Part shown: piece after piece, positions 19,213 through 61,586 of the stretch
Numbering within the stretch: position 1 is the stretch's first letter
Layout of the letters: each line of letters starts with the position of its first letter
NCBI GenBank assembly: GCA_951812945.1
Contig: CATOTB010000001.1
Coordinates: 488,198 to 552,197, forward strand
DNA from: Candidatus Dadabacteria bacterium
GTDB taxonomy: Bacteria > Desulfobacterota_D > UBA1144 > Nemesobacterales > Nemesobacteraceae
Reading direction: 5' to 3'
DNA length: 64,000 bases
Notes under the pieces: model-generated
The model's database searches: none
Seen by the model: the letters and a program-made list of their open reading frames with translations, nothing else
Told to the model about the DNA's origin: nothing
Program-made: the position numbers and the translations under genes

Positions 19213-19250
19213 ACGAAAGCCTAACTTACTAATATGACTAAACAATCTAC

Positions 19251-19258
19251 CCCCCCCC
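19251..19258 (+). repeat. homopolymeric C tract (C8 by the coordinate grid) in the 5' region of the methyltransferase gene
   Basis: read directly; lies between an upstream ATG (19235) and the conserved MTase N-terminal region. Confidence 0.6.
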
Positions 19259-19310: not shown

Positions 19311-20480
19311 ATGCGCAGGATGAATTCCGACTGCGTAGACCTGATTTACTTAGACCCCCCTTTCAACAGCAAAACAAACTATGCTGCACCTATTGGTAGT
19401 CATGCGGCCGGTGCCGAGTTTAAGGATACTTGGACTCTCTATGACATAGATATTGTCTGGCTTGATTTACTTGAAGCCAAGCATCCAGCACTCAATCGAG
19501 TTATTCACGCTACTTTGACCAAGAGTGATAAATCTTATCTGATTTACATGGCGATTAGGTTGCTGGAAATGAGGCGGATACTGAAACCGGCCGGAGGCAT
19601 TTATCTTCACTGTGACCCAACAATGAGTCACTATTTGAAGCTGGTAATGGATGCTATATTCGGAAGAGAGAATTTTAGAAATGAAATTATTTGGGCTTAC
19701 ACGGGGCCAGGGTCTCCCAATATGAGGCAGTTTAACCGCAAGCACGATGTGATCTTCTGGTACTCAAACGGTGAAGACTGGACATTTAATGGGGATGCTG
19801 TTCGAGTATTGCATAAAAAACCTATTGGGGCTGGAGGCACATCTACAAAATGGCTGAAAGAGAAAGAAGATTTGGCGGAAAAATACAAAGGCGGGAAGAT
19901 TCCCGAGACATGGTGGACGAGGTTTTCTCCTGTCGGAAGGATTAAGGGAGAACGCACTGGTTATCCCACACAGAAACCGAGAAAGTTGTTAAAGCGAATA
20001 ATTGAAGCTAGTAGTCCAAGAGGGGGCATTGTATTTGACCCATTCTGTGGTTGTGCTACGACCTGCATAGCCGCAGAGGAATTAAACCGGCAATGGATAG
20101 GAATTGATATCTCGCCCAAAGCGGCGGAACTTGTACAAACCAGAATACTGAATGAACTAGGTTTTGCTGGACGTGAACATCAGATAATTCACCGCCAGGA
20201 CATTCCACAGAGAACAGATTTAGGAGAGATTCCAAAGTACAACTGTAAGGAGAACAAGAACAGATTGTATGGAGAGCAAGGTGGGCATTGCAACGGATGC
20301 AGAGAACACTTCCAAATGCGTCATTTAGAAGTGGACCACATCATTGCTCGCTCACAGGGTGGCACAGACCACATTGAGAATTTGCAAATGCTCTGTGGAA
20401 ACTGCAATCAGATTAAAGGCAATCGTGGACACGAGTACCTGTTGGCAAGAATGGAAGGGAGAAAAGTACCCTACGCATGA
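19311..20480 (+). CDS. beta-class DNA methyltransferase (DPPF motif IV preceding FDPFCG motif I) fused to a C-terminal HNH endonuclease domain
   Basis: DLIYLDPPF, FDPFCGCATT, then HLEVDHIIARSQGGTDHIENLQMLCGNCN; the conserved N-terminal region extends upstream of ATG 19311 and is frame-linked to ATG 19235 only if the C tract changes length. Confidence 0.85.
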   Translation: MRRMNSDCVDLIYLDPPFNSKTNYAAPIGSHAAGAEFKDTWTLYDIDIVWLDLLEAKHPALNRVIHATLTKSDKSYLIYMAIRLLEMRRILKPAGGIYLHCDPTMSHYLKLVMDAIFGRENFRNEIIWAYTGPGSPNMRQFNRKHDVIFWYSNGEDWTFNGDAVRVLHKKPIGAGGTSTKWLKEKEDLAEKYKGGKIPETWWTRFSPVGRIKGERTGYPTQKPRKLLKRIIEASSPRGGIVFDPFCGCATTCIAAEELNRQWIGIDISPKAAELVQTRILNELGFAGREHQIIHRQDIPQRTDLGEIPKYNCKENKNRLYGEQGGHCNGCREHFQMRHLEVDHIIARSQGGTDHIENLQMLCGNCNQIKGNRGHEYLLARMEGRKVPYA

Positions 20481-20764: not shown

Positions 20765-21697
20765 CTAAGAAGTCAGTTTTTCAAAGGTAATGGTCTTGCC
20801 CACCATAGCACCGAACAGGGCGTTCAGTCTATCTTCTGTATCAACCTTGCAACTTCCTTCGCTCAAACGAAAAGCGAACTCGTTGATATAGGCACGCATG
20901 TGCTTCTTACTCCAGTTGTGGTAAACGCCGTTGTATCCACGCTTCATGACCGCCCATACGCTTTCAATCCCGTTGGTAGAAGCCATGCCATTTACGAATT
21001 CTTTCGCTGAATGATTGACTGTTCCGTGTTCAAAATCCTTCCCGAGTAATCCGCTATAGCCTTTATGTTCATCCGTAAACACGATGGAACCCTTAACGAC
21101 ATTTTCGCTTATCTCTCTTTCGAGGGTTTCCGCGTCCCGTCTTTCAATAGGAATTGCCTTAGTCTTGCCGCCACGTTCTCTCATGCCGAGTACGCAGGTC
21201 TTTCCAACAGGTCCACGTCCGGCGTGAAGCTTCTTGGATTCGTGTTTGTTTTTTTCGAGACCTCCCAGAAAAGTTTCGTCTATTTCCACAACTCCCTTCA
21301 AGGCTTCCATATCGCTTCCGCAGGCAAGACGCAGACGGTGAAGCATGTACCAAGCAGTGGGTTGGGAAACAGCCAGTTCCTTGCTTAGCTGGAGACTGCT
21401 TATGCCCTTTCTGGCTGTCATTAGCAGATAAGCGGCGAATATCCACTTGCGAAGGTCAATCTTTCCATACTCAAGCGGAGTTCCGGTGCGAGCGGTGAAA
21501 TACTTGCGACAATTCCCGCACCAGTAACGTCCAGGGTGTTTGAATTGAGGGGTGATCTTCTCGGTGCTACCGCACCTTGTGCAGTGCCTCTTGTTACCCC
21601 ATCTCTGATTCTCAAGATACTTGATAGCATCTTCCTCAGTAGGATATTTCTGCATCAACTCGAACAAGCTGATTATCTTTGCATGTTTCTTTTTCAT
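20765..21697 (-). CDS. IS1595-family (ISXO2-like) transposase with N-terminal zinc ribbon
   Basis: CxxC...CxxC zinc ribbon (HCTRCGST...WCGNCRKYF) followed by a DDE ISXO2-like domain; 310 aa. Confidence 0.85.
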   Translation of the reverse strand: MKKKHAKIISLFELMQKYPTEEDAIKYLENQRWGNKRHCTRCGSTEKITPQFKHPGRYWCGNCRKYFTARTGTPLEYGKIDLRKWIFAAYLLMTARKGISSLQLSKELAVSQPTAWYMLHRLRLACGSDMEALKGVVEIDETFLGGLEKNKHESKKLHAGRGPVGKTCVLGMRERGGKTKAIPIERRDAETLEREISENVVKGSIVFTDEHKGYSGLLGKDFEHGTVNHSAKEFVNGMASTNGIESVWAVMKRGYNGVYHNWSKKHMRAYINEFAFRLSEGSCKVDTEDRLNALFGAMVGKTITFEKLTS

Positions 21698-22109: not shown

Positions 22110-22444
22110 AAAGTAAAATGAGGGAGCGGTTGCTGGAGGACGGCACTGTCCTTGGTGTTTTTTGTATAATATTCGAGTGTTTTTGGATCTAATAGGGGGG
22201 GTGTATAGACTTAAGTTTACAAGTCCTCCAAACCCTGTATCGCTTCCTCGAACCCGCGGTGTAGTGCTTTAAATTCCAAGAGCCATCTTACCCCGGCGAC
22301 ATTTTTGCTTCTCGTGGAAGCAGGTAATTCATCGGACTGAATTCATGTTGGGGAGGTTTGAGAGTTCCATTTACTCGAGTGGAGCAGGGGAGGCTTATTA
22401 GGACCAACCGTTCTGTATCATCCTGAAATAACTTAGTATTTACC

Positions 22445-29249: not shown

Positions 29250-30743
29250 TTGTCTGTCGAGATAAAAATGGATGATAAAAGCGTCGCCCAGGAGATGGAA
29301 AGTTACGTTTCTAATCTCGACAGCGACATCTATACAATAAGCAATATTCCCGAGGAAGTTGTCGCCGTCATCTTCGCCTATGTAAGCAGAAGTCCTAAAA
29401 GCTTCAGGGAAAACATAGACACCGTAATAAGGGAGCAGGAGATGGGGAGGGACAGGGCGGAGAAGTTCCATGAGAAGTGGGTTCTTAACTACGGTCACGC
29501 TTCTGTTGCGGAGCACGCAACCGTGCACATGGGCGTTGAGAGGGTTTCAAGGCTTTTCTCATCCCTGCTTGAATGCGCGAATGAATTTCTCTCGTTCACT
29601 GAATATTCCCAGAGATACCAGAGACCGCGCAAAGGTGACAACTACATCCCGGAGGAGCTTGACTCACACCCGGTTCTTAAAAAGGAGTTCGAAGAGCTTT
29701 GCGATTTTCAGTACGACGTTTATTCAAGGCTTAACACAGAGCTTTTCGATTTCCTGAAAACAAAATTCCCCGTTCCCGAAGGCAAGCAGGAAAAGGCCCA
29801 CTTCAGGGCGCTTGAGAAAATAGCGTTTGAGGATGCCAGGTATGCCCTTAACCTCTCCACACTTACGAATCTCGGCATGACGGCAAACGCAAGAGCCATA
29901 GAGCAGACCATCTCTGCGCTTCTCTCAAGCCGCTATCTCGAGGCGAGAAAAAGGGCCGAGGAGATGAAAAGCGAGGTCAGGTTCTCTGTTCCAACGCTTG
30001 TAAAGTATGCTGACGAAAATCCCTACATAGTCAAAACGCGCGAGGCGCTTGCGGAATTCTCGCGTGATCTTGAAGACACCGGAAAAACCAAACCCGAAAA
30101 CGGCTCTTCCGTTGCTCTTTTTGACTACACTGGACGGGGAAGAGAAAATCCCCAGGCCGAGGCTCTAAGAGAGATCGCAAGAGGGCTTCTTTTCGAATTC
30201 TCTGGGCTTTCAGTCGGTGACATAGAGAGACATCTTTCCCAAAACACCCCGGAGCTTGAGAAAATTTTCTCAATCGCCGTCGAGGCACTTGGAAAGCACG
30301 ATAACCCGGCCGGGATATTCAGATCGGTTAATTACAATGCGGAGTTTGTCCTGAGCGAGGCGGCGTGGCATCAGCTGCTAAGGCACAGGAAAGTCAGCTG
30401 GACCGCGAAGGAACCTTCTGTTGAGGATGGCGTAACGGTTCCTCCTCACGTTACGGAATCGGGGACAGAGGAACTCCTGCTCGATGCCGTCGGACGAAGT
30501 GAGCATCTCTACGAAAAGCTCATCGACGCCGGTTCTCGCGATGTGGCGAGCTACGTTGTCACAAACGCTCATAACAGGAGGGTTTTGGGCAGCTTCGATC
30601 TCTGGGAACTATACCACCTGACGAACCTGCGGATGTCGGAGGGGGCGCAGTGGGATATACAGAAAGTCGTTGGGCAGCTTGCGCAGGAAATTGGCAAAGT
30701 GCATCCGGTCTTTGTCCGTTCCGCTTTGAAAAGGGTTGCTTAA
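29250..30743 (+). CDS. tandem-domain ThyX-like protein (FAD-dependent thymidylate synthase family)
   Basis: first half has ThyX-like GHASVAEHAT...SQRY; second half has an RHR-containing motif (LLRHRKVSWTAKEPS); 497 aa, twice typical ThyX length; TTG/ATG start ambiguous. Confidence 0.55.
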   Translation: MSVEIKMDDKSVAQEMESYVSNLDSDIYTISNIPEEVVAVIFAYVSRSPKSFRENIDTVIREQEMGRDRAEKFHEKWVLNYGHASVAEHATVHMGVERVSRLFSSLLECANEFLSFTEYSQRYQRPRKGDNYIPEELDSHPVLKKEFEELCDFQYDVYSRLNTELFDFLKTKFPVPEGKQEKAHFRALEKIAFEDARYALNLSTLTNLGMTANARAIEQTISALLSSRYLEARKRAEEMKSEVRFSVPTLVKYADENPYIVKTREALAEFSRDLEDTGKTKPENGSSVALFDYTGRGRENPQAEALREIARGLLFEFSGLSVGDIERHLSQNTPELEKIFSIAVEALGKHDNPAGIFRSVNYNAEFVLSEAAWHQLLRHRKVSWTAKEPSVEDGVTVPPHVTESGTEELLLDAVGRSEHLYEKLIDAGSRDVASYVVTNAHNRRVLGSFDLWELYHLTNLRMSEGAQWDIQKVVGQLAQEIGKVHPVFVRSALKRVA

Positions 30744-32665: not shown

Positions 32666-33661
32666 TCAGGGGACGACCGAAAGACTTTTAAGCTCGACGA
32701 CGGATATGTTCTGCGCAAGCAAAAGGTCTCTTGTTCTCTCAGGCGGCGGGACATCCGTGAGTAGGAGCCTTAGTCTTCCCCCGAGGGCGTTTCTTAGGTT
32801 CTCGCCCGAGCCGTTTTCGCCTCCGAGCCTGTTAACGACATTTTCAATTTCCGCACCCGCAAGAAAAAGCATGACTGGCATTATCTCGGGGACATCCGCA
32901 AAAAAATCTTGAGTGTCCTCTGCTATGGCTCCCCTGGCCGCGGTCTGCAGGTTAAGCAGATTAGCGAATTTCGAAAAAGAACCGCTGCTGGGAAGGTAGG
33001 AAAACGTTTGGTCCTCGACAGAAACCGCCCCCAGTTCCTGTTCCGAGAGGCACAGGAGATCGAGTATGTCTCCATGGGAAAAGCTTCTGTTTTCAGCCAG
33101 TGCGCCCCCCGCATTGAATATTACAGCTGCGGAGTCCTTGTTTACCGAGCTTCCGAGTGCGTCTATTTCATCCTTAAGCTTTTTCCTGCTGAGAAAGCCG
33201 AACTTTACGACGTTTGAATAACTGACTGTTTTTTCCTCCACGGGGATTTTTTCGTTCACGCTGAGAAAGGCTTTTTCTATTTTCTCTCCGAGTATGGGGT
33301 CATCAGCGAGTTTCCGTGCGTCGTCTGTGCTTGCGGAAAGAAAAAAGCAATTTCCAGACGAGTTCTCAAGGACCGCTCTTGCTTCCTTTACGTTCCTTGC
33401 AGGCAGGGAGATTCCCCCTAGCGTAAATACCGCCAGTTCGAAAAAAAGACACGCCAGAGTGTTGGGTGAGAGAACGATTATCCTGCTTCCGGTGGAGAAT
33501 CCCGAATTCAGAAGAAAACAGGCTATGCTTTCGACTTCGGTCGCAAGGTCGGGCCAGGTGATCTGTTTCCAGCTCCACCCGTCTTTTTTCTGAAACAGCA
33601 GCCTTGAGCCGTTTTCCTTTGTTTTTTCCCTGAGGAAATTATGGAAGTTCCTTTCTTTCAT
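32666..33661 (-). CDS. AMP-dependent synthetase/ligase-like protein with degenerate core motifs
   Basis: N-terminal half resembles acyl-CoA synthetases, but the TSGTTGxPKG motif is not intact. Confidence 0.35.
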   Translation of the reverse strand: MKERNFHNFLREKTKENGSRLLFQKKDGWSWKQITWPDLATEVESIACFLLNSGFSTGSRIIVLSPNTLACLFFELAVFTLGGISLPARNVKEARAVLENSSGNCFFLSASTDDARKLADDPILGEKIEKAFLSVNEKIPVEEKTVSYSNVVKFGFLSRKKLKDEIDALGSSVNKDSAAVIFNAGGALAENRSFSHGDILDLLCLSEQELGAVSVEDQTFSYLPSSGSFSKFANLLNLQTAARGAIAEDTQDFFADVPEIMPVMLFLAGAEIENVVNRLGGENGSGENLRNALGGRLRLLLTDVPPPERTRDLLLAQNISVVELKSLSVVP

Positions 33662-35218: not shown

Positions 35219-36439
35219 TTAACCCTCTTGAATCGCTGTGGAGTAGATGTCGATGTCTTTTGAGCTCATACCTAAGCGGCGCGCTGTGCCCAGCCAGTTT
35301 TTCAGGGGAGCCGATATTTCATCGATTATTGCCTCGGACTCTTTTTTCTTCAGGGCGAAAAACGGCGCTGCCTCGCGCGCCAGATTGAGGTCGGCTTCGG
35401 GTCCCTGCTCTGAAATCCAGGTTGCAAGTTCCCGGGCTTTTTCCACAAGTGGCACGGGATTCAGGTCGTAGGCGGGTGACAGGCGCCACCTGCCGTTGCC
35501 GTTGTAAAGAAATCCGTGATTACGGAGGTGATCGTCAAGATTACTGATAAGCACATTAAAGACGATCCGTCGCCAGAGTTCGTGCAGGTCTTCCGTCGGC
35601 GAGCTTGAATGCATGCGTATGATCTCCGCGATGTCGGTATAAGTTGCTTCATCTCCGTCGTTTAGTCCTAGAAGGCTCATGGCTGACAGAAACGGAATAC
35701 GCCGGTTGCCCGTTCGGTCGAAGCGCCGGATCAGTGCCACCGGTCGGCCGGCGACATCCACCAGTTCTGCATCGGCCACACTCAGTCCTGCCTCGCGTGC
35801 CAGAGTCATCGCCAGTACTTCCCCGTGCGGTATGCTTCGGTCGTCATCGGGTTTTGGAAACTTGGCGATTGCCAACGTGCCGTCTGTGTTCTCTACTGCG
35901 GATTTTGGACGCGCACCGCCAAGCGGTGAGCCCTCGTTCAAAAGCAGTTTAAGGTCTTCTGAAGTTTCGGTATTCGTCTGAACTGCATCAGCCGCGTTGA
36001 TAAGCGCTGGCAGTTGAATCAGGGGCGGTACGCGGGAACTGCCTATGTGATGATCAAAAGAGTTTTCGCCCTCGCGTCTGAAACGTAGCGCGCCGATGCG
36101 CGTGTGATCCGTGACCGCGAGCAAATAATCGAGTTCCGAAAGGGTTCGCTTCCCTCCGGCCTTGGCAAACGCCCGCTTGATAAGTTGTCGACCCCATCGG
36201 TCGGGTGCCGCATCGCGGAGGGCTCCCGGCAGCGCGGATTTATCTGAAGAGGTATAAAATGGTACTCCCTGCAGCGGCAAATTCTCCGGATCAATTGCAA
36301 AGGCATCGGTGTCACCGAGCCATTCAGCTGCATATTCGAACACAGAGCTTCGGCTGCGGTGCTTGTCGACATAGCGGAACCGTCCGACCATTCGGGTACC
36401 GCCTGGGCGGTCAATATGGATCTCAATTGCATTTTTCAT
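35219..36439 (-). CDS. hipA: HipA-family serine/threonine kinase toxin
   Basis: HipA N- and C-domains across the full length; GC-rich relative to surroundings. Confidence 0.8.
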   Translation of the reverse strand: MKNAIEIHIDRPGGTRMVGRFRYVDKHRSRSSVFEYAAEWLGDTDAFAIDPENLPLQGVPFYTSSDKSALPGALRDAAPDRWGRQLIKRAFAKAGGKRTLSELDYLLAVTDHTRIGALRFRREGENSFDHHIGSSRVPPLIQLPALINAADAVQTNTETSEDLKLLLNEGSPLGGARPKSAVENTDGTLAIAKFPKPDDDRSIPHGEVLAMTLAREAGLSVADAELVDVAGRPVALIRRFDRTGNRRIPFLSAMSLLGLNDGDEATYTDIAEIIRMHSSSPTEDLHELWRRIVFNVLISNLDDHLRNHGFLYNGNGRWRLSPAYDLNPVPLVEKARELATWISEQGPEADLNLAREAAPFFALKKKESEAIIDEISAPLKNWLGTARRLGMSSKDIDIYSTAIQEG

Positions 36440-36777
36440 CAGGGAATCCTTTTGCTTCTGCGTCTTCGGGACATGATTTTCTTAGGCAAACGGTCCTCGT
36501 CAAGATCGAGACCCAGAGCGTCATTGGTGCGGTCGGCGACTTGGACTAAACCTTCGGCAAGACCGAGGATAGCCAGAACCGTCGCGTATATTCCCATCGA
36601 GACCGTAGGGTCACCCTTTTCGACCTTGTAAAGAGTAGCGCGACTTATAAAGGCGCGTTCTGCCATTGAAACAGTTGAAATGCGACGCTTTTTGCGCGCA
36701 ATGGCTATATCCGCGCCGAGTTTGACTAAAGCTTGTCGAGCTGCCCGCGGAAGCGTTTGTGGTGCTTGTGATTTCAT
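36439..36777 (-). CDS. hipB: HipB-like XRE-family HTH antitoxin
   Basis: HTH_XRE (ISTVSMAERAFISRATLYKVEKG); 1-nt junction with hipA. Confidence 0.75.
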   Translation of the reverse strand: MKSQAPQTLPRAARQALVKLGADIAIARKKRRISTVSMAERAFISRATLYKVEKGDPTVSMGIYATVLAILGLAEGLVQVADRTNDALGLDLDEDRLPKKIMSRRRRSKRIP

Positions 36778-44575: not shown

Positions 44576-45916
44576 TTGAAAATGAAAATAGCACGCTTGG
44601 GAAAACTGAGGAATCACCTTGGGGACAAGGGGAGTTATGTGATACGTATTGGAAAGGTGGTTACTAGAGCCTTGAATATATCGCGTGTTTTCATTGTGGC
44701 TGCAGGGCTTTTGCTGGGACTTCTGCTTATGGGAGGGCCTGCGGAGGTCAACACCCAGGAAACCAATGTCGAAGGTGACCTCAGGTTGGTGGACATGACT
44801 ACCGGTAATGTAGTGAGCCTTGTTATTGCTGTTGCGCCCTCGGGCAGGCTTGAAATGTTTGATGATGAAGATGGCGATGGTACCGGGGAATGGAAGGCAA
44901 TATGCGATGATTATCTGGGAGTGCTGGGAACACAAGAAAAAGGAAACCTTCGGGTAATCGGCAGGCAGGAGGCCGAGGTCGCATGCCGCCAGCTGGGCTA
45001 CTCGGGAGGTACCCCCATAACTGGGCTGACGTTGCCGGATGATATGGATTACCTGCTTGACAACCTTGAATGTGCGGGCTCTGAAGCAAGAATCTTCGGG
45101 GAGGGCAAATGCAGACACCAGCCGCGCGGAGAGCATGATTGCGAGAGCCAGAGAGCTTTTGGCGTCACATGTGAAGCTGCCACCTCAAATGACGATGCCG
45201 TAGGCAGGCTTGCAATCACGGGCGAAACTAAGGTGAGGCAGACACTTACCGCGGATCACACGGGTATTACCGACGAAGATGGCAAGCCGACTGAGGAGAC
45301 TTCTTTCAGCTATCAGTGGATCAGGGTTGATAATTACTGGAATGAAATCGAGATTCCCGGCGCGACGTCCTCCACCTATGTTCTTCAGGATGATGATGAG
45401 GAAAACTGGATCAAAGTGAAGCTTATCTTCACGGACGATGCTGGGAATGCGGAGGAGGTCTTCAGCTTTGAAGAGGGGCCTGTTTACACTGACAAGCCTG
45501 ACGGTTCCCTCCGGTTAAGGCCACTTAGGCTTAGTTATGATCTTGATGATGGTGCTACGCTCTCCGTGGACTCGGATCAATTCACTGGTATGGTCGAGAT
45601 ATTTGATGAGCCGGGCAGGAAATGGAAGGGAGTATGCGATGATGGGGCGGAGGATGAAAACCTGGGGTGGGGCACGGAAGAAGCGCAAGTAGCATGTCGC
45701 CAGCTGGGCTATTCGGGGGGAATTCCGATCACCGAGATAGATGGGACCACTTCTCCGCCGACCTATTTTCTGCTTGACGGGGTAGAATGCGACGGAACGG
45801 AGGAAAAGCTGCTTGATTGTGAACACGCGGAACGTGGAATTCACGATTGCACTTCACTGGAATATGCAGGTGTTTTTTGTGACGATCCGGATAGCAATGA
45901 CGACTCTTCAAGATAA
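44576..45916 (+). CDS. secreted/membrane-anchored protein with two SRCR (scavenger receptor cysteine-rich) domains
   Basis: two copies of the pattern GRLE(M/I)FD...W(K/G)..CDD.....EA.VACRQLGYSGG......ECxGxE..L..C.H...HDC; start codon ambiguous (internal TTG/GTG candidates precede a signal-like segment). Confidence 0.65.
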   Translation: MKMKIARLGKLRNHLGDKGSYVIRIGKVVTRALNISRVFIVAAGLLLGLLLMGGPAEVNTQETNVEGDLRLVDMTTGNVVSLVIAVAPSGRLEMFDDEDGDGTGEWKAICDDYLGVLGTQEKGNLRVIGRQEAEVACRQLGYSGGTPITGLTLPDDMDYLLDNLECAGSEARIFGEGKCRHQPRGEHDCESQRAFGVTCEAATSNDDAVGRLAITGETKVRQTLTADHTGITDEDGKPTEETSFSYQWIRVDNYWNEIEIPGATSSTYVLQDDDEENWIKVKLIFTDDAGNAEEVFSFEEGPVYTDKPDGSLRLRPLRLSYDLDDGATLSVDSDQFTGMVEIFDEPGRKWKGVCDDGAEDENLGWGTEEAQVACRQLGYSGGIPITEIDGTTSPPTYFLLDGVECDGTEEKLLDCEHAERGIHDCTSLEYAGVFCDDPDSNDDSSR

Positions 45917-53836: not shown

Positions 53837-55373
53837 ATGCACGAGGAAACGGAGTTCAAGCTCTCCCTTTCGCCCGCAGTGGCGAATCGGATTTTGCGTT
53901 ACAAGGGACTCAGGCCCCACCGCAAGGGCCGCCGTGTAAAGCACCGTTTAGTAAGCACCTACTTCGATACTCCCCGCCACGCGCTAAGAAAATCCGAGAT
54001 AGTGCTTAGGGTGCGCGATAACGGCAAGGGCAGGGAACAGACTGTAAAGGCGCCGTTCCAGGGTCCCGCGGGCCTTCAGAATTTCCGTGAATGGACCGTG
54101 GCGGTAAACGGTGACTGTCCGAATCTTTGTGCCGTGGACGACCCTGCGCTCGCGCGCAAGCTCTCCCGCGGGCGTTACGAAAAGCGCCTAAGCCCTCTGT
54201 TCACCACTGACTTTGAGCGCGAAGCAGTTCGCATAAGGGTCCGGGGCACCGAATTCGAGCTTGCGGTTGATCAAGGGATCATTCGCGCCGAAACGCGCGG
54301 GGGGGACAGTTGAGGAACCCATATGCGAAGCGGAATTCGAACTGCTCTCAGGGGACCCGGCGCGGATGTTCGATGTGGCTCTTGAACTCTGCGAGGCTTA
54401 TGACATACGCCTCGGCCACCTTACCAAGGCGCAAAGGGGCTACGCACTCACGAGACCGGCGCTCCGTCCCAGACCCTGCAAGGCCCCGAAGGTTGTGCTC
54501 ACGGAGGAGATGAGCGTAGGAAAGGCGTTTAACTTCATCATTGCCGGCGCGCTTGAGCACATGTTTGCAAACGAGACCCCGACCCTGGAGGGAAGGGCGG
54601 AGGGGGTCCACCAGACGAGGGTGGCCATGAGGCGCGTGCGCGCGGCGCTTCGGGCTTTCAAGAGAATACTTCCGTACGACAAGCGAAAGGCGTTTAACGG
54701 AGAGTTCCGCTGGTTCCAGCAACGACTGGCCCCGGCCCGCGACTGGCAGGTCTTTTTGAGCGAAACGCTTCCAAAGATAGCCGCTGCCGCTCCCGAGCAG
54801 GAAGAAGCGATAAAGCGCCTTCGGCGCATCGCGCGCGCCGAGCGCCGCCGCGCCGTGGGAGACGCTGCCGCTTACCTTGATAGCCGCCGCTACGCCCGGC
54901 TGCTTCTTCAGTTCGAGCGATGGATCGCGTCTGTGGAGAAGGAGGTCGGCTCAAAGACTTTCGACGAGCCCGTAAAGCCGTTTGCAAGAAGCGTCCTCAG
55001 GAGAACGTGGCGCTATTTCCTTGAGGATACGAGGCCTCTTTCACGCCTTCCTGACGAGGATCTTCACGAAATAAGAAAACGGGGGAAAAAGGCCCGCTAC
55101 GCAACGCAGTTTTTCAACTCGCTCTGGACCGGTTCCCGGGTTCCGCCCTTCATGAAGCTCATGGGACGCTTCCAGGACAGCCTTGGAAAGACAAATGACG
55201 CGATAGTGGCGCGGCACATCCTGGCGGCGGTTAAGCCGGGGAGGCTCGATCCCTCGGTAATCCATCTTGCGCAGGAGTGGTCCCAGGCCCGGGTGAGAAA
55301 ATGCCTTCGCACGGCGCAGCCGCAGTGGAGGCGCCTCGGGAGAGTTGCGCCGTTTTGGGAGGCGGCGGAGTGA
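53837..55373 (+). CDS. CYTH-CHAD domain protein interrupted by a frameshift in a G7 tract (two ORFs: 53837-54313 and 54261-55373)
   Basis: the CYTH domain continues across the frame change (…AVDQGIIRAETRGG | TVEEPICEAEFELLSGD…); CHAD domain in the second ORF. Confidence 0.6.
54299..54305 (+). repeat. homopolymeric G7 tract at the CYTH-CHAD frameshift site
   Basis: read directly. Confidence 0.7.
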
Positions 55374-55461
55374 GTCCCGCTTTTCACGTGGAGAAGAATT
55401 ATGTAAACTCACGGATTGTGGGTGTTAAGACGCTGTATGTTGTTTCCCCAGGAGGTTACAG

Positions 55462-57621
55462 ATGGCTTCTTCTATAACGGACATCTCGAGCAAGAGGGCC
55501 CCTGCCGGTTTTTCCAAAAAGGAAAAATATCTTAACAGGGAGCTTTCTTGGCTTGACTTTAACCTTAGGGTTCTTGAGACGGCGGCAGACAAGAAGGTTC
55601 CGCTTCTTGAGAGGGTGCGCTTTCTCTCCATCTCCGCTAGCAACCTCGATGAGTTCTACATGGTCAGGGTGGCGGGTCTTGCGGGACAGGTTATGGAGGG
55701 AGTTACAGATCGCAGCAAAGACGGCCTTACTGCGTCGCAGCAGCTTGAAGCGATAAGGGAGAAGGTGCACTTCCTGCTTGACAGCCAGTACGAGTGCGAA
55801 AAGGACTTGTTTTCCCTCTGCAAGAAGGCCAAGATCAAGATCGTAACTCCCGAGAAACTCGACCGCTCGGGCGCCAGATGGCTTTCCGAGTGGTTCTCTA
55901 AAAAGCTTTTTCCGGTGCTTACCCCGCTTGCCATAGACCCAGCGCATCCGTTTCCCTTCATACAGAGTGGGAGCCTTGTGTGCGCCGTGCAGCTGAGCCG
56001 CGCCGAGGACGGAAAGCGCATGAAGGGTCTCATAATTCTGCCTTCTCAGGTTGAGCGCTTCATAAGGGTTCCGGGAGGAAAAAAAACCCAATTTGTCCCG
56101 ATCGAGAAGGTCATCGAGCACAACATGAAATCCCTTTTCCCGGGTTTTGAAGTGGATGACAACGGGATCTTCCAGATCACCCGAGACAGCCTTCTTGAGA
56201 TAGACGAAGACGCGGAAGATCTGGTCGAGACGTTTGAAACTGCCCTTAAGCAGCAACGCAGGGGAGGGTCAGTGATCAGGGTTGACGTCAACGCGGACAT
56301 GCCGGATGCGATCGTCAACTTCATAATGGACAAGCTTGAGGCCAGTGACGCGCATTTTTTCAGAATCAAGGGGATGCTCGGGCTTGAAAGCGTGAAACAG
56401 ATAATACTCGATGAGCGAAGCGACCTTCTTTACAAGCGCATGAGTATCCGCTACCCCGAGCGGGTCAGAGAATTCGGAGGCGACGTGATAGCCGCCATAC
56501 GGCAGAAGGATTTCGTCGTTCACCATCCCTACGAGAGTTTCGACGTCGTCGTTGAGTTCCTCAAGCAGGCAGCCGAGGATCCGGCGGTCGTTGCGATCAA
56601 GCAGACGCTTTACCGCACCTCGGAAGACTCTCCGATAGTGAAAAGGCTCATAGAAGCTGCTGAGGCCGGAAAATCCGTAACTGCCATGGTGGAGCTCAAG
56701 GCCCGTTTCGATGAGGAGGCCAACATCCGCTGGGCGCAACGCCTCGAGGATGCGGGAGTCCAGGTTGTGTTCGGATTCATTGACCTTAAAACACACGCCA
56801 AGGTATCGCTGGTAGTGAGAAGGGAAGGTTCTGACATCCGTACCTACACCCACTATGGCACCGGCAACTATCACCCCGTAAACGCCAAGATATACACAGA
56901 CCTCAGCTACTTCACAGCCGACGAGGCGCTCGGCCGCGACGCCGCCAAGCTTTTTAACTACATGACCGGCTATGCCACTCCGAAGAAGATGGAGAGGATA
57001 TTTTTCTCTCCCGTCACGATGCGCCCGAAGGTGCTTGAGCTTATAAGGGACGAGATAGACCATGCGAAGGCCGGCCGCCCCGCGGTGATATGGGCCAAGA
57101 TGAATTCCCTTGTGGACAGCAAGATAATAGACGCGCTTTACGCGGCGAGTTGCGCGGGGGTAAGAATTGAGCTTTTCGTTCGGGGAATATGCTGCCTGAG
57201 GCCCGGGGTGCCGGGGCTCTCCGAGAATATCAGGGTAAAGAGCATTGTGGGGCGTTTCCTTGAGCACAGCAGGGTTATCTGCTTTGGCGCCGGGGAGGGG
57301 CTTCCTTCTAATGCCTGCAAGGTCCTCATCTCGTCTGCGGACTGGATGCCCCGTAATCTTGACCGCAGGGTGGAGTCGCTTGTTCCAATTGAAAACGCCA
57401 CGGTGAAAAAGCAGCTTGTCGAGCAGGTGATGGTTGCTAACCTAAATGATGTCGCGAACAGCTGGGAGATGCTCCCTGATGGTTCTTTCCGCAAGCTAAA
57501 AAGCGATTCGGACAGTTTTTCGGCTCATAAATACTTTATGACCAACCCCAGTCTTTCAGGAAGAGGCAAAGCGCTTGCCAAATCCCGGCCGCAAATGCCG
57601 GCTGAGTTTGTGCAGGAATAA
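55462..57621 (+). CDS. ppk: polyphosphate kinase 1
   Basis: 719 aa; PPK1 N, head and two PLD-like C-terminal domains. Confidence 0.93.
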   Translation: MASSITDISSKRAPAGFSKKEKYLNRELSWLDFNLRVLETAADKKVPLLERVRFLSISASNLDEFYMVRVAGLAGQVMEGVTDRSKDGLTASQQLEAIREKVHFLLDSQYECEKDLFSLCKKAKIKIVTPEKLDRSGARWLSEWFSKKLFPVLTPLAIDPAHPFPFIQSGSLVCAVQLSRAEDGKRMKGLIILPSQVERFIRVPGGKKTQFVPIEKVIEHNMKSLFPGFEVDDNGIFQITRDSLLEIDEDAEDLVETFETALKQQRRGGSVIRVDVNADMPDAIVNFIMDKLEASDAHFFRIKGMLGLESVKQIILDERSDLLYKRMSIRYPERVREFGGDVIAAIRQKDFVVHHPYESFDVVVEFLKQAAEDPAVVAIKQTLYRTSEDSPIVKRLIEAAEAGKSVTAMVELKARFDEEANIRWAQRLEDAGVQVVFGFIDLKTHAKVSLVVRREGSDIRTYTHYGTGNYHPVNAKIYTDLSYFTADEALGRDAAKLFNYMTGYATPKKMERIFFSPVTMRPKVLELIRDEIDHAKAGRPAVIWAKMNSLVDSKIIDALYAASCAGVRIELFVRGICCLRPGVPGLSENIRVKSIVGRFLEHSRVICFGAGEGLPSNACKVLISSADWMPRNLDRRVESLVPIENATVKKQLVEQVMVANLNDVANSWEMLPDGSFRKLKSDSDSFSAHKYFMTNPSLSGRGKALAKSRPQMPAEFVQE

Positions 57622-57625
57622 CTCT

Positions 57626-59154
57626 ATGACAGAAATTTCTTCCTCCGCCGCGCCCTTCGGCAAGGTCGGAACCGCGGCCGTAATAGACGTAGGATCAAAC
57701 TCCATACGTCTTGTGATCTACAAGGGCCCGAGGCGCGCCCCGCTTCCAATACTTGATGAGAAGGTTTCCTGCGGCTTGGGGCGCGGGATGGACTCTCGGG
57801 GCAGGATGTCTCCGCAGAGCATGGATCTCGCCCTGCGAACTGTAAGCCGCTTTGTCGATATCGCGCGCTCGATGAAGGTTTCCGGAATAAAGGCGGTTGC
57901 CACCGCCGCGGTGAGAAACGCCTCAAACGGCTCCGACTTCAAAGAGGCTGTTGAGCAGCAATGCGGGATTTCACTTCGGGTGCTCTCTGGCATGGACGAG
58001 GCAAGGCTTTCCGCGCTCGGTACTCTCTGCGCCATTCCTGACGCTGACGGCGTAATGGGGGATATAGGCGGCGGAAGCCTTGAGTTGGTAGAGATTTGCG
58101 AAGGGGAATTAGGAAACCACGCCACGTTACCGCTTGGCACGATCCCGCTTCTTGAAAGCGGCCTGAGTCCCGTAAAGGCCCGAAAGAAACTGATTGTCCC
58201 CCTCCTTGACGAGCTTTCCTGGCTTGAGAACGCGAAAAAGAAAACCTTCTACGCCGTCGGGGGTTCGTGGCGAGCTCTTGCTAAAAAACACATGGAATCT
58301 GAGGATTATCCGCTTCGCATAGTTCACGGCTACAGTCTTTCGAGATCCAAGGCGGTTGAGATGTCCGGGAGATAGCCGAGATGTCTTCGGGTTCGCTTCA
58401 GGATCTCTGGACCCTGGGGCGAAACAGGGTGGAGTCCGCTCCCTACGCCGCCACGCTTATGAAGAGTCTTCTGAAAAAAACGGGCGTTAACAACCTCATG
58501 TTTTGCACGTACGGGCTTCGGGAGGGATGTATATACGACGATCTTTCCCCGGAGCAGAGTTCTCTGGATCCGCTGGTTGTCATGTGCGAGGAAATCGCCC
58601 TTAAGATGGGAAGGTCCGTTGAGGACGGCAAGGCTTTCTGCAAGTGGATAGAGGCGGCAATTCCAGATAAATACGCCGGAGACTCGAGGCTTAGGCTCGC
58701 CGCATGCCATCTCTCGGACATAGGAATTTCCGAGCATCCGGAATACCGGGCGGAGCAGGTGTTTTTAAGGATACTGCGGATGCCGCTTGTGGGAATCACT
58801 CATCCGGAGAGGGTGAAGGTGGCTCTCTCGGTATCTTCAAGACACGCGGCAATAGGAAACCTGATTCGCCGCTGGGAAGTTTCCGGGTTTCTTTCCAATG
58901 ATGATGTGGAGGAAGCCAGGGTTACGGGGCTTGCTCTTCGTCTGGCTTACACGGTCTCGGGAGGGGTGGCGCGGATTCTTGAGAGTACCAGGCTTGAGAG
59001 AGCCGGGAAAAAGCTTGCTTTGCATATGCCTGGCCAGATTCCTCACCCGGAAACCGTCGGTCGCCGTCTGGGGGCCCTTGCAAAGGCCGTCGGATGCGAT
59101 TATGAGACGATTGCGCGGGATCAAGCTAATGAAACCGCTGGGTGGGGAACTTAG
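57626..59154 (+). CDS. ppx: Ppx/GppA-family exopolyphosphatase, split into two ORFs by a frameshift near 58345-58395 (57626-58375 and 58381-59154)
   Basis: N-terminal actin-like Ppx-GppA domain (VIDVGSNSIRLVIY) in ORF 1; the continuation (…GLREGCIYDDL) and HD-like region in ORF 2 are in another frame. Confidence 0.65.
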
Positions 59155-59203
59155 ATTCGTGTAGAATTCCCTCTGACTTTTAGCTGTTTGCTGGTCGGAT
59201 CTG

Positions 59204-60106
59204 ATGAATTTACTTGACGCAATAGACAACCTGAATATCTGGAAGCAAGGGGACAAAAGAGCTCCTCACAAGCCTCTACTTCTTCTATATGCGCTCGCTG
59301 AACAAGTCCGAAATCCAGACGCTAGGTTTGAGTTTTTTCGTATAGAAGAAAATATTGATCAGTTATTAAATGATTTTTACAAATCATTTCCCGGACGCAG
59401 ACACCATGTAAATGATCCTTTCTGGCGCCTTCGCGGGGATGGAATCTGGAAAGTAGAATCCGACGGAATAATAAGGGAAACCAGTTCAGGAGGTGCTTAT
59501 GTAAGCGATTTAAGGAAATACAATGCTACGGGTTCGTTTTCTAAAGGGGTTGTTCAAGAGATAAGAAATAATCCTGAAGTTGCTTTGCAGGCCGCACGGA
59601 AACTGCTTAATGAACATTTTCCCGAATCATTGCATCAAGATATACTGGAGACTGTAGGATTAGATTACAAGACAATTTCTGCTAAAGAATACATTTCTAA
59701 AAAAACTAAAAGAGACAGTACATTTCGGCAGAAGGTTCTTCACGCCTACGGTTACAGTTGTGCGGTGTGCGGGTTTAATCTGCGCATGAAAACTCTTCCT
59801 GTCGGACTGGAAGCGGCGCATATCAAGTGGCATCAGCATGGAGGACCAGATGCTGAAAACAACGGACTGGCACTATGCGCCACGCACCACAAGTTGCTTG
59901 ACTCGGGGGTGCTGGCACTCTCTGACAATTACCAAATCATTCTTTCAGAGTGGATATTTGATCCCGACCGAAAAAACAGTTTTATACGGGAGCATCATAA
60001 CCGTGAAATCAGATTGCCTAGGAACAGCAACCATTTGCCCAAAATGGATTATATCCGCTGGCACAGAAAAGAAGTGTTTAAAGAACCCGAACTAGTTTTG
60101 ATTTAG
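59204..60106 (+). CDS. McrA-like HNH endonuclease with an uncharacterised N-terminal domain (candidate modification-dependent restriction enzyme)
   Basis: C-terminal HNH: CAVCGF...LEAAHIKWHQHGGPDAENNGLALCATHHKLLDSG; N-terminal domain with KAPHKPLLLLYAL; AT-rich. Confidence 0.65.
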   Translation: MNLLDAIDNLNIWKQGDKRAPHKPLLLLYALAEQVRNPDARFEFFRIEENIDQLLNDFYKSFPGRRHHVNDPFWRLRGDGIWKVESDGIIRETSSGGAYVSDLRKYNATGSFSKGVVQEIRNNPEVALQAARKLLNEHFPESLHQDILETVGLDYKTISAKEYISKKTKRDSTFRQKVLHAYGYSCAVCGFNLRMKTLPVGLEAAHIKWHQHGGPDAENNGLALCATHHKLLDSGVLALSDNYQIILSEWIFDPDRKNSFIREHHNREIRLPRNSNHLPKMDYIRWHRKEVFKEPELVLI

Positions 60107-60539
60107 TAGTACTAAGTGAAATAAATTCTCAAATCTGATTGCGAGATGCGGCAATACGAAGAAAAAGCCTTTTTTGATTCTTGAGATACTGCCAAGATAA
60201 AGTGATAGCAACAATCTGTATGGAACTTTCAACGTCGCAACAATCTCTGGGCATGCCAAGTCTTAATCGTGCATGGTTGCTTGGAATCTTGGCCAACATC
60301 TCTTCATGAGATCGTTGCCGATGTACTGTGATAAAAGGAATTTGAATTGTTCGGTATGTACTTCTTTAAGCTTATTACCAAACGAATGATCAAGGCATGT
60401 GTAGGCAGTTCCTCAAAACACCGAAAAGAACTGACAAAGGAGATGCCGCTTGGAAACAAATGGGTGGTTTAGGGCGGCATTACAGTTGTTGCCACCATGC
60501 TGGAGAGAACCCTGACGAGGCAAACACAGGAGTATTGCG

Positions 60540-61586
60540 ATGAATCGAACGAAAGTATTTCTTGATTCCAACATCTTAATCCAAGCGGGGAAACCACCGG
60601 GTGGGCCGGTCCTCGAACGGTTGAAGCATTTGGTTAATGCCGGTCTTGTAACTGTGCTGACCACGGATCTGACCTGCCGGGAGGTTGCGAAGAAGCATAC
60701 TGAAAACGACTACAATGTCATAAAAGAAGTTGGACAACCTCATTTCCGCAATATAGTTAAGGACATACTGGGCACCAAGTTTCCCAAAATCACTAAAAGC
60801 AAACTGAAAACCAAACTTGCCAAGTCATACAGGCAATCCACCGAGGCTATGCTCACTGAGCTCAACTGCAGAATGCTGAAAATTGACGATATTAAACCTT
60901 CCAAAGTGTTATTTTCTTACACTAACGGAGAGGGGTTCTTTGCTGGAGAGGCAAAAAAGGAACAATTTCCCGACGCTTTTATCTTCGAGTGTCTCAAGGC
61001 CGAAGCGTCAGGGGAAGAATCGATTATAGTTGTCTCGAATGACCGTGATTTCAAAAAACCGGTCGAGGATGAGGCTCACATCTCGCTCGTGAAATCCTTG
61101 CCCGAACTCTTTGAAAGGATGGGTCTTAAAATTGACGCACCCGACATGGAGGGTTTCCTTGAGTGTCATGAGGGTAAGTTGTTTGAAGCGGTCAACGAAG
61201 AGTTGAATTGCTGGGGATTCGTTGGAGATGTTCCAGACTCCGAGATTGAAGAGACAACAGTAACTGATGTGAGAGTAATTAAACTCGCAAGTTTCGGGTC
61301 GACTGAGAAAAGAGGCTCAATTCTGATAGTCGGTCGTCTCCATGTGAGAGCGGAGATTTCATATGCCCATCCGGACTGGGATACCGCAATGTACAGCGAC
61401 GACGATATCCTTGTCTGGATTAATGATGAGCGCGTGAGTGGCGAGACTGAAGTCGGCTTCAATGTGGATGTGTCGATGTCGGTAGCGGTGGATAAAAACG
61501 ACAATCCCAAGAGCATTGAAGAACTGCGTTTCCTAAACGGCGACTTTCAGCATATCGAGCTCCACAGTGATCATTATCACGATTAG
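60540..61586 (+). CDS. PIN-like nuclease domain protein with C-terminal domain of unknown function
   Basis: PIN signature acidic residues (VFLDSNILI ... IVVSNDRDF); GGAG RBS. Confidence 0.55.
   Translation: MNRTKVFLDSNILIQAGKPPGGPVLERLKHLVNAGLVTVLTTDLTCREVAKKHTENDYNVIKEVGQPHFRNIVKDILGTKFPKITKSKLKTKLAKSYRQSTEAMLTELNCRMLKIDDIKPSKVLFSYTNGEGFFAGEAKKEQFPDAFIFECLKAEASGEESIIVVSNDRDFKKPVEDEAHISLVKSLPELFERMGLKIDAPDMEGFLECHEGKLFEAVNEELNCWGFVGDVPDSEIEETTVTDVRVIKLASFGSTEKRGSILIVGRLHVRAEISYAHPDWDTAMYSDDDILVWINDERVSGETEVGFNVDVSMSVAVDKNDNPKSIEELRFLNGDFQHIELHSDHYHD

Follow-up and report, generated by a model that had tools for sequence, protein, structure and literature searches.

A private single-base frameshift in a YgiF-like CYTH-CHAD gene, and a second in ppx, within one polyphosphate operon of a sponge-associated Candidatus Dadabacteria bacterium

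The split CYTH-CHAD gene and its operon

The stretch of DNA analysed here (64,000 nucleotides, hereafter the window) carries dnaE on the minus strand, followed by CYTH-CHAD, ppk1 and ppx. CYTH-CHAD leads a conserved operon with ppk1 and ppx in this sponge-associated member of Candidatus Dadabacteria, and in the orthologous Dadabacteria loci examined with the flank present it is a single ORF of 507–511 aa followed by ppk1 and ppx. The features of the operon in the window are as follows.

53837–54313, plus strand: ORF1, 158 aa; the first 156 codons of CYTH-CHAD, then two out-of-frame codons and TGA
54299–54305, plus strand: G7 homopolymer, the frameshift site; G6 (GGG GGG, Gly-Gly) or G5 in the closest relatives
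54306–55373, plus strand: rest of the gene, in the +1 frame; last CYTH strands, linker and complete CHAD
54320–54323, plus strand: two private substitutions (54320 T>C, 54323 C>A), 15–18 nt past G7
55462–57621, plus strand: ppk1 (polyphosphate kinase 1), intact, 719 aa, between the two broken genes
57626–58375, plus strand: ppx/gppA N-terminal fragment, matching Ppx-GppA (PF02541) over 10–218 of 285 and ending at a premature TAG
58365–58366, plus strand: 1-bp deletion that splits ppx, CC in place of the CCC of all relatives
58381–59154, plus strand: ppx C-terminal fragment, 257 aa, matching Ppx_C (PF21697) over 1–181 of 187

At the frameshift site the window reads CGCGC-GGGGGGG-ACAG (in context, GAAACGCGC GGGGGGG ACAGTTGAGGAACC), and the TGA that closes ORF1 lies at 54311–54313, 8 nt past the tract. 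ORF2, in the +1 frame, is open over 54261–55373 and its translation includes ...GGTVEEPICEAEFELLSGD.... An earlier, sequence-only reading of this DNA had held that the CYTH domain is continuous only if the frame is changed within G7, that ORF1 ends 8 nt after the tract, and that ORF2 carries the remainder of the domain into CHAD. The stop position agrees, and Pfam searches bore out the other two claims: ORF1 matched CYTH (PF01928) over profile positions 2–132 of 179 (49.5 bits, E 5.8e-13), ORF2 matched CHAD (PF05235), a domain of two four-helix bundles, over 2–227 of 228 (190 bits against a cut-off of 25.6, E 5e-56), and deletion of one G in silico gave a 511-aa YgiF-like protein in which the CYTH match extended to 2–179 of 179 (65 bits), together with CHAD.

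The gene is YgiF-like, with a predicted CYTH triphosphate-tunnel phosphohydrolase fused to a CHAD polyphosphate-binding domain. The repaired protein aligned with E. coli YgiF (PDB 5a60) over the tunnel and linker (phmmer E 1.8e-23), and the CHAD part with structure 6qv5 (E 9e-30). YgiF is a CYTH/TTM tripolyphosphatase in which Glu-160 binds metal site 1 (PMC4641920), and CHAD is a polyphosphate-binding module that raises YgiF activity (bioRxiv 10.1101/567040). The ExExK motif is present in ORF1 (E4-T-E6-F-K8). The acidic strand that aligns with Glu-160, 'CEAEFEL', sits downstream of the frameshift, with YgiF 'PICELELELLSGD' opposite 'PICEAEFELLSGD' of the window, the latter past the shift. The predicted 158-aa product is an incomplete CYTH domain that lacks the last tunnel strands and the Glu-160 equivalent, and because that acidic strand is missing ORF1 would not be expected to make a working tunnel or CYTH enzyme. 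As encoded, the window does not place a complete CYTH tunnel in one polypeptide; only the removal of one G does so.

The same operon has a second private 1-bp lesion, in ppx, which the sequence-only reading did not report and which is new here. At this site contig L051 has GAGATGTCCCGGGAG and the window GAGATGTCCGGGAG. The N-terminal ppx fragment begins at TTG 57575 in the ORF listing, while ATG 57626 agrees with the start called in L003; together the two ppx ORFs correspond to one 530-aa gene in L001, and ppx in the relatives encodes 513–530 aa. The presence of this frameshift in the same operon changes the relative weight of the explanations considered below.

Just past ppx, at ~59.1–60.1 kb, synteny with most relatives stops. 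At 59204–61586 there follow genes for an HNH_2 endonuclease and a PIN_12-domain protein, possibly forming a variable defence islet; a related long-read contig (L085) has a ScoMcrA-like SBD-HNH_2 gene in the same place.

The rest of the window and the tract in relatives

A Pfam survey of ~55 window ORFs gave full-length matches throughout and no other split genes, the ~45 other Pfam-annotated ORFs appearing intact, and none of ~150 other homopolymers of at least 6 nt in the window, including coding C7 and A8/T8 runs, breaks an ORF. In total, ~57 kb of coding sequence contains two frameshifts, and a single three-gene operon holds the pair. With the first lesion taken as given, we estimate the chance that a second random lesion would fall in ppk or ppx at ~0.07, with a similar value when weighted by G/C runs. 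This argument from clustering is somewhat weakened because CYTH-CHAD (60.6%) and ppx (56.0%) rank first and second in GC content among the window genes. Two kinds of further split-gene candidate were set aside. A scan for ORFs that would merge after a ±1 change in a homopolymer of at least 5 nt gave 18 candidates, of which those checked were neighbouring genes, for example queC/queE and GNAT/meaB, and a short AMP-binding match at 32666–33661 was rejected since there is no room for the missing part.

The window contains two G7 runs, the other lying at 22195–22201 within an 870-nt gap without ORFs that follows an IS1595-family (ISXO2-like) transposase gene (20765–21697, minus strand). The longest G/C homopolymer of the window is a C9 tract at 19250–19258. 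A gene that begins 52 nt further downstream (19311–20480) encodes a DNA methyltransferase (N6_N4_Mtase) joined to an HNH nuclease, and the tract could act as a phase-variable promoter element of this restriction-modification-like gene. Elsewhere, the eukaryote-like scavenger-receptor cysteine-rich (SRCR) domain is matched twice in a protein of 446 aa (44576–45916), which would fit life as a sponge symbiont. At 35219–36777 (minus strand), the gene for a HipA-like kinase toxin beside an HTH (HipB-like) gene looks like a toxin-antitoxin pair, and an ORF of 497 aa that matches Thy1 (ThyX) twice (29250–30743) appears to be a tandem-duplicated flavin-dependent thymidylate synthase.

A homology search returned 345 relatives, the best of them intact 511-aa proteins at 97% identity; the matches that bear a name, and the loci on genomes, belong to Candidatus Dadabacteria MAGs. 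Among metagenome contigs, the closest derive from Mediterranean sponges of three species, Petrosia ficiformis (LXNJ), Sarcotragus foetidus (LXNI) and Aplysina aerophoba (MKWU) (PMC5099237). Eight near-conspecific contigs (L001–L004 and L048–L051; ~87–97% nucleotide identity, mosaic) carry G6, G5 or no tract, and the frame is kept in all eight.

L001, L002 and L048: CGC GGG GGG ACA, G6, in frame
L049: CAC GGG GGG ACA, G6, in frame
L003, L004 and L050: TCC GGG GGA CGC, G5, in frame
L051: CCC GAG GGA CGC, tractless, in frame

More widely, the longest G run at the site is 2–6 nt, with the frame kept, in 36 of 36 orthologous Dadabacteria loci, and reaches 7 in the window alone; the loop encoded there varies among orthologues (RGG, SGG, REG, PEG, RRG and others). 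The G7 string was absent from all 85 fetched loci, and exact-product look-ups (ORF1, ORF2 with two candidate starts, the ppx fragment, ppk, dnaE and selO) found no second copy of the allele. When the whole gene was aligned with L001–L004 (~96–97% nucleotide identity), the extra G was the sole indel across 1,536 nt. The comparison of G6 with G7 orthologues proposed in the sequence-only reading came out as it had predicted, with G6 in the closest relatives and the frame restored. Taken together, these data identify the locus, with high confidence, as one ordinary YgiF-like gene interrupted where a Gly-Gly codon pair has expanded, in the window alone, from G6 to G7.

Two further differences lie close to the tract. 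The changes at 54320 and 54323 are synonymous in the repaired frame, fall at positions invariant in the eight relatives, and are among 23 window-private substitutions in 5.3 kb; the pair could stem from a small, complex mutational event, from a short segment imported from an allele outside the sample, or from poor consensus quality at this spot. Along the polyphosphate operon (53842–59160, compared with L001, L003 and L048–L051) the nearest relative switches every few hundred bases, and the window ppx is 97–100% identical to the Aplysina contig L051 and 86–95% identical to L001, L003 and L048. Such a mosaic suggests either that sponge-associated strains recombine or that assembly has produced chimaeras. 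L048 and L050, which belong to one assembly, both begin at window position 53842.

Selection on the operon and lesions across Dadabacteria

Substitutions on the window's own branch were assigned by parsimony, comparing the window with L001 and L003, and gave the following values.

CYTH-CHAD: 6 nonsynonymous, 8 synonymous, dN/dS 0.24
selO: 1 nonsynonymous, 7 synonymous, dN/dS 0.04
dnaE: 2 nonsynonymous, 16 synonymous, dN/dS 0.04
ppk: 5 nonsynonymous, 26 synonymous, dN/dS 0.06
ppx: 17 nonsynonymous, 51 synonymous, dN/dS 0.11

The nonsynonymous excess of CYTH-CHAD over pooled selO, dnaE and ppk gives Fisher p = 0.025 on small counts, and the high dS of ppx (0.139) probably reflects mosaic ancestry. 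The private amino-acid changes in CYTH-CHAD (E229K, E348D and E434R) are all at variable positions. Neither CYTH-CHAD nor ppx contains further stops or indels, no private amino-acid change is at an invariant position, and ~357 and ~257 codons, respectively, are still open past the shifts, with dN/dS far below 1. By the dN/dS and private-substitution tests, the lesions are either very young or not real.

Frame-breaking lesions were also surveyed by tblastn of five genes, and later three more, against ~30 Dadabacteria loci.

dnaE: lesions in 0 of 27 loci
uvrD: lesions in 0 of 19 loci
DUF2103: lesions in 0 of 28 loci
CYTH-CHAD: lesions in four loci; the window, L022 (−2 bp, codon 24–25), L023 (+1 bp, same place) and L025 (+1 bp near the C-terminus)
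ppx: lesions in two loci; the window and L025 (−1 bp)
ppk: lesion in one locus; L016 (−4 bp in GGCCGGCCGGCC, a (GGCC)3 repeat, in an Illumina assembly)
selO: lesions in one or two loci; L021 (+19 bp) and L030 (divergent C-terminus, possibly no lesion)

Overall, seven lesions were found in ~157 kb of CYTH-CHAD, ppk and ppx versus none in ~150 kb of dnaE, uvrD and DUF2103, with G/C-run densities alike between the compared genes. We estimate a binomial probability of ~0.01 for this enrichment of the polyphosphate genes over housekeeping genes, or ~0.02 with the index lesion removed, both post hoc values from small counts. In L025 (OZ246948.1), CYTH-CHAD and ppx are damaged and ppk is intact, the same pairing as in the window. 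The distribution of lesions is the pattern expected of real mutations filtered by selection, and several of them, among them the −4 bp of L016, the −2 bp of L022 and the +19 bp in selO of L021, are not of platform-error types.

Some other truncations in the clade, seen in L085 and in proteins P0034 and P0121–P0132, look like sequencing noise. In L085 (ERZ25071132 ctg811267_45x_l), a long-read assembly of a related Dadabacterium, dnaE and CYTH-CHAD are both split, and one 90% cluster holds 11 CYTH-CHAD copies, each truncated elsewhere. The truncated homologues P0034 and P0048 were considered as recurrent natural truncations and rejected as random breaks in noisy long-read assemblies, in which dnaE is split too. 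All of these truncations (L085, P0034, P0048 and the 90% cluster) were left out of the biological lesion evidence, and they advise caution in treating truncated database entries as biology.

Explanations for the lesions and comparison with known systems

The sequence-only reading had left three options for the CYTH-CHAD frameshift. Two of these, sequencing error and recent pseudogenisation, stay live, while slippage-based switching is disfavoured by a tract that is unconserved and ranges from G2 to G6 in relatives. At about even confidence, we favour a real and very recent strain-specific inactivating mutation over a sequencing or assembly error. By strand slippage, the GGG GGG pair would have gained one G (G6 to G7), so that translation would halt 8 nt later and yield the 158-aa product; the CHAD part would then be made only via an internal start, for example ATG 54510. 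The frame is disrupted relative to intact orthologues, and CYTH-CHAD would on this evidence be a very young pseudogene. Because ppx has an independent 1-bp deletion while ppk1 is intact, a strain-specific erosion of the polyphosphate-turnover arm is suggested. A real lesion is favoured by clustering in one operon, by a spread of lesions among relatives that resembles the effect of selection, and by a mildly raised dN/dS. Against it stand the ±1 changes in G/C runs, which classically also mark a sequencing or consensus error, the lack of decay in either gene, the noisy assemblies in the clade and the failure of the look-ups to find a second assembly of the allele.

The same observations lend substance to a sequencing or assembly artefact, which is doubtful yet a serious possibility. 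According to this explanation the true genome has G6 and CCC with both genes intact, and the window carries consensus homopolymer miscalls arising, for example, from long reads, low coverage or a strain mix. Each lesion alters the length of a G/C run by a single base and is private to the window assembly among the relatives compared; the frames are fully open past the shifts and bear the selection signatures of functional genes. A recombinant, strain-mosaic population is hard for assemblers, noisy long-read assemblies of the clade truncate CYTH-CHAD at random and even dnaE, and the private substitutions 15–18 nt from the tract could mark a poor local consensus. However, miscalls would have had to split just two genes in the ~57 kb of coding sequence and place both in the same three-gene operon, and no other homopolymer of the window breaks an ORF. 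The lesions in relatives spare dnaE and uvrD, as real selected mutations would, and the C3 to C2 change in ppx has no long-homopolymer context.

If the frameshifts are real and their pairing is no coincidence, some sponge Dadabacteria strains may repeatedly lose the polyphosphate-degrading arm (YgiF-like CYTH-CHAD and Ppx) and keep Ppk1, giving polyphosphate-hoarding variants. This extension is based on the damage to CYTH-CHAD and ppx in the window and L025, and to CYTH-CHAD alone in L022 and L023, and we consider it unlikely.

Less probable still, and in our view very unlikely, is a tolerated fission, in which the frameshift is real, translation restarts within the gene, for example at ATG 54510 behind GGAGGAG, to give the C-terminal part as a separate polyphosphate-binding CHAD protein, and CYTH activity alone is lost. 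Stand-alone CHAD proteins are known, some of them in polyphosphate operons (bioRxiv 10.1101/567040; PDB 6qv5, 3e0s), and in the window an intact CHAD ORF matches the Pfam profile in full and has an in-frame ATG after GGAGGAG just ahead of the domain. However, this Shine-Dalgarno-like motif touches the ATG with zero spacer, and the lesioned relatives lose either domain without pattern. Another ATG, created by the private C>A at 54323, was rejected as a restart codon since it is in the wrong frame for CHAD.

Slippage or phase variation, whether by toggling between G6 and G7 or by RNA polymerase or ribosomes slipping on G7 to give full-length protein in a fraction of cases, is extremely unlikely. 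In its favour, close relatives differ in tract length (G5, G6 and G7), and from the sequence a tRNA-Gly on GGG could re-pair perfectly in the +1 frame on GGGGGGG; G runs are also hypermutable, and some homopolymer frameshifts of endosymbionts are partly rescued by transcriptional slippage. Yet the tract is missing or short (G2–G5) in most orthologues, with 36 of 36 loci in frame, and the G5/G6 difference consists of Gly-codon substitutions, not on/off switching. Contingency tracts are typically at least 8 nt long, and RNA polymerase slips on A/T runs of 8–9 nt or more, both longer than G7. The next 0-frame codon, GAC, is neither a stop nor rare, and there is no prfB-like arrangement; RNA structure in the 95 nt past the tract is not significant (z = −0.51), and the ppx lesion lies outside any slippery tract. 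The site is not a conserved one with a stop or hungry codon, as for a programmed +1 frameshift, and it lacks the long conserved tract with on/off variants of a phase-variable locus, only in-frame states being seen among the eight near-conspecific contigs. Because the tract is unconserved in relatives, we judge with high confidence, on sequence comparison, that it is neither a programmed frameshift site nor a dedicated phase-variation tract.

By itself, the CYTH-CHAD lesion is minor, being a routine single-base frameshift in a well-characterised family, and we advise that it and the split ppx be annotated as 'frameshifted; verify with reads'. Provided that the lesions are real, the strain would synthesise polyphosphate via intact Ppk1 without Ppx and the YgiF-like phosphatase. 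Recurring lesions in the polyphosphate operon of sponge Dadabacteria hint that polyphosphate turnover is dispensable or under diversifying pressure, and they bear on phosphorus sequestration in sponges, where Candidatus Dadabacteria are among the carriers of ppk1 (PMC13431277). Should repeated loss of the degrading arm be true, such variants could add to the polyphosphate accumulation reported in sponge holobionts.

Among characterised proteins, E. coli YgiF, a CYTH/TTM-CHAD inorganic triphosphatase and short-chain polyphosphatase (PDB 5A60, 5A61), has the same domain order, the CYTH tunnel followed by CHAD, and its ExExK motif and 'CE.E.EL' acidic strand are kept in the window gene. By contrast, YgiF has 433 aa and the repaired window protein 511 aa, the 'long' CHAD of the latter being closer to 6qv5; the window gene also lies directly upstream of ppk1-ppx, and its frame is broken between tunnel strands. 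The CHAD of ORF2 resembles (E 9e-30) stand-alone CHAD proteins (RcCHAD and CtCHAD; PDB 6QV5, 6QV7 and 3E0S; polyphosphate-granule proteins of Ralstonia eutropha), for which association with ppk/ppx operons has likewise been described (bioRxiv 10.1101/567040). Unlike them, the window CHAD is ancestrally fused to CYTH and would be separate only by accident of the frameshift.

The poly-G/C contingency loci of Campylobacter, Neisseria and Haemophilus also have a coding G tract whose length sets the frame, whereas the tract in the window is short (7), unconserved and free of on/off polymorphism among relatives. In young homopolymer-indel pseudogenes of host-associated bacteria, as in the assembled window, a single ±1 indel interrupts an otherwise intact and formerly selected gene, and private lesions likewise fall in accessory genes of related genomes while essential genes are spared.
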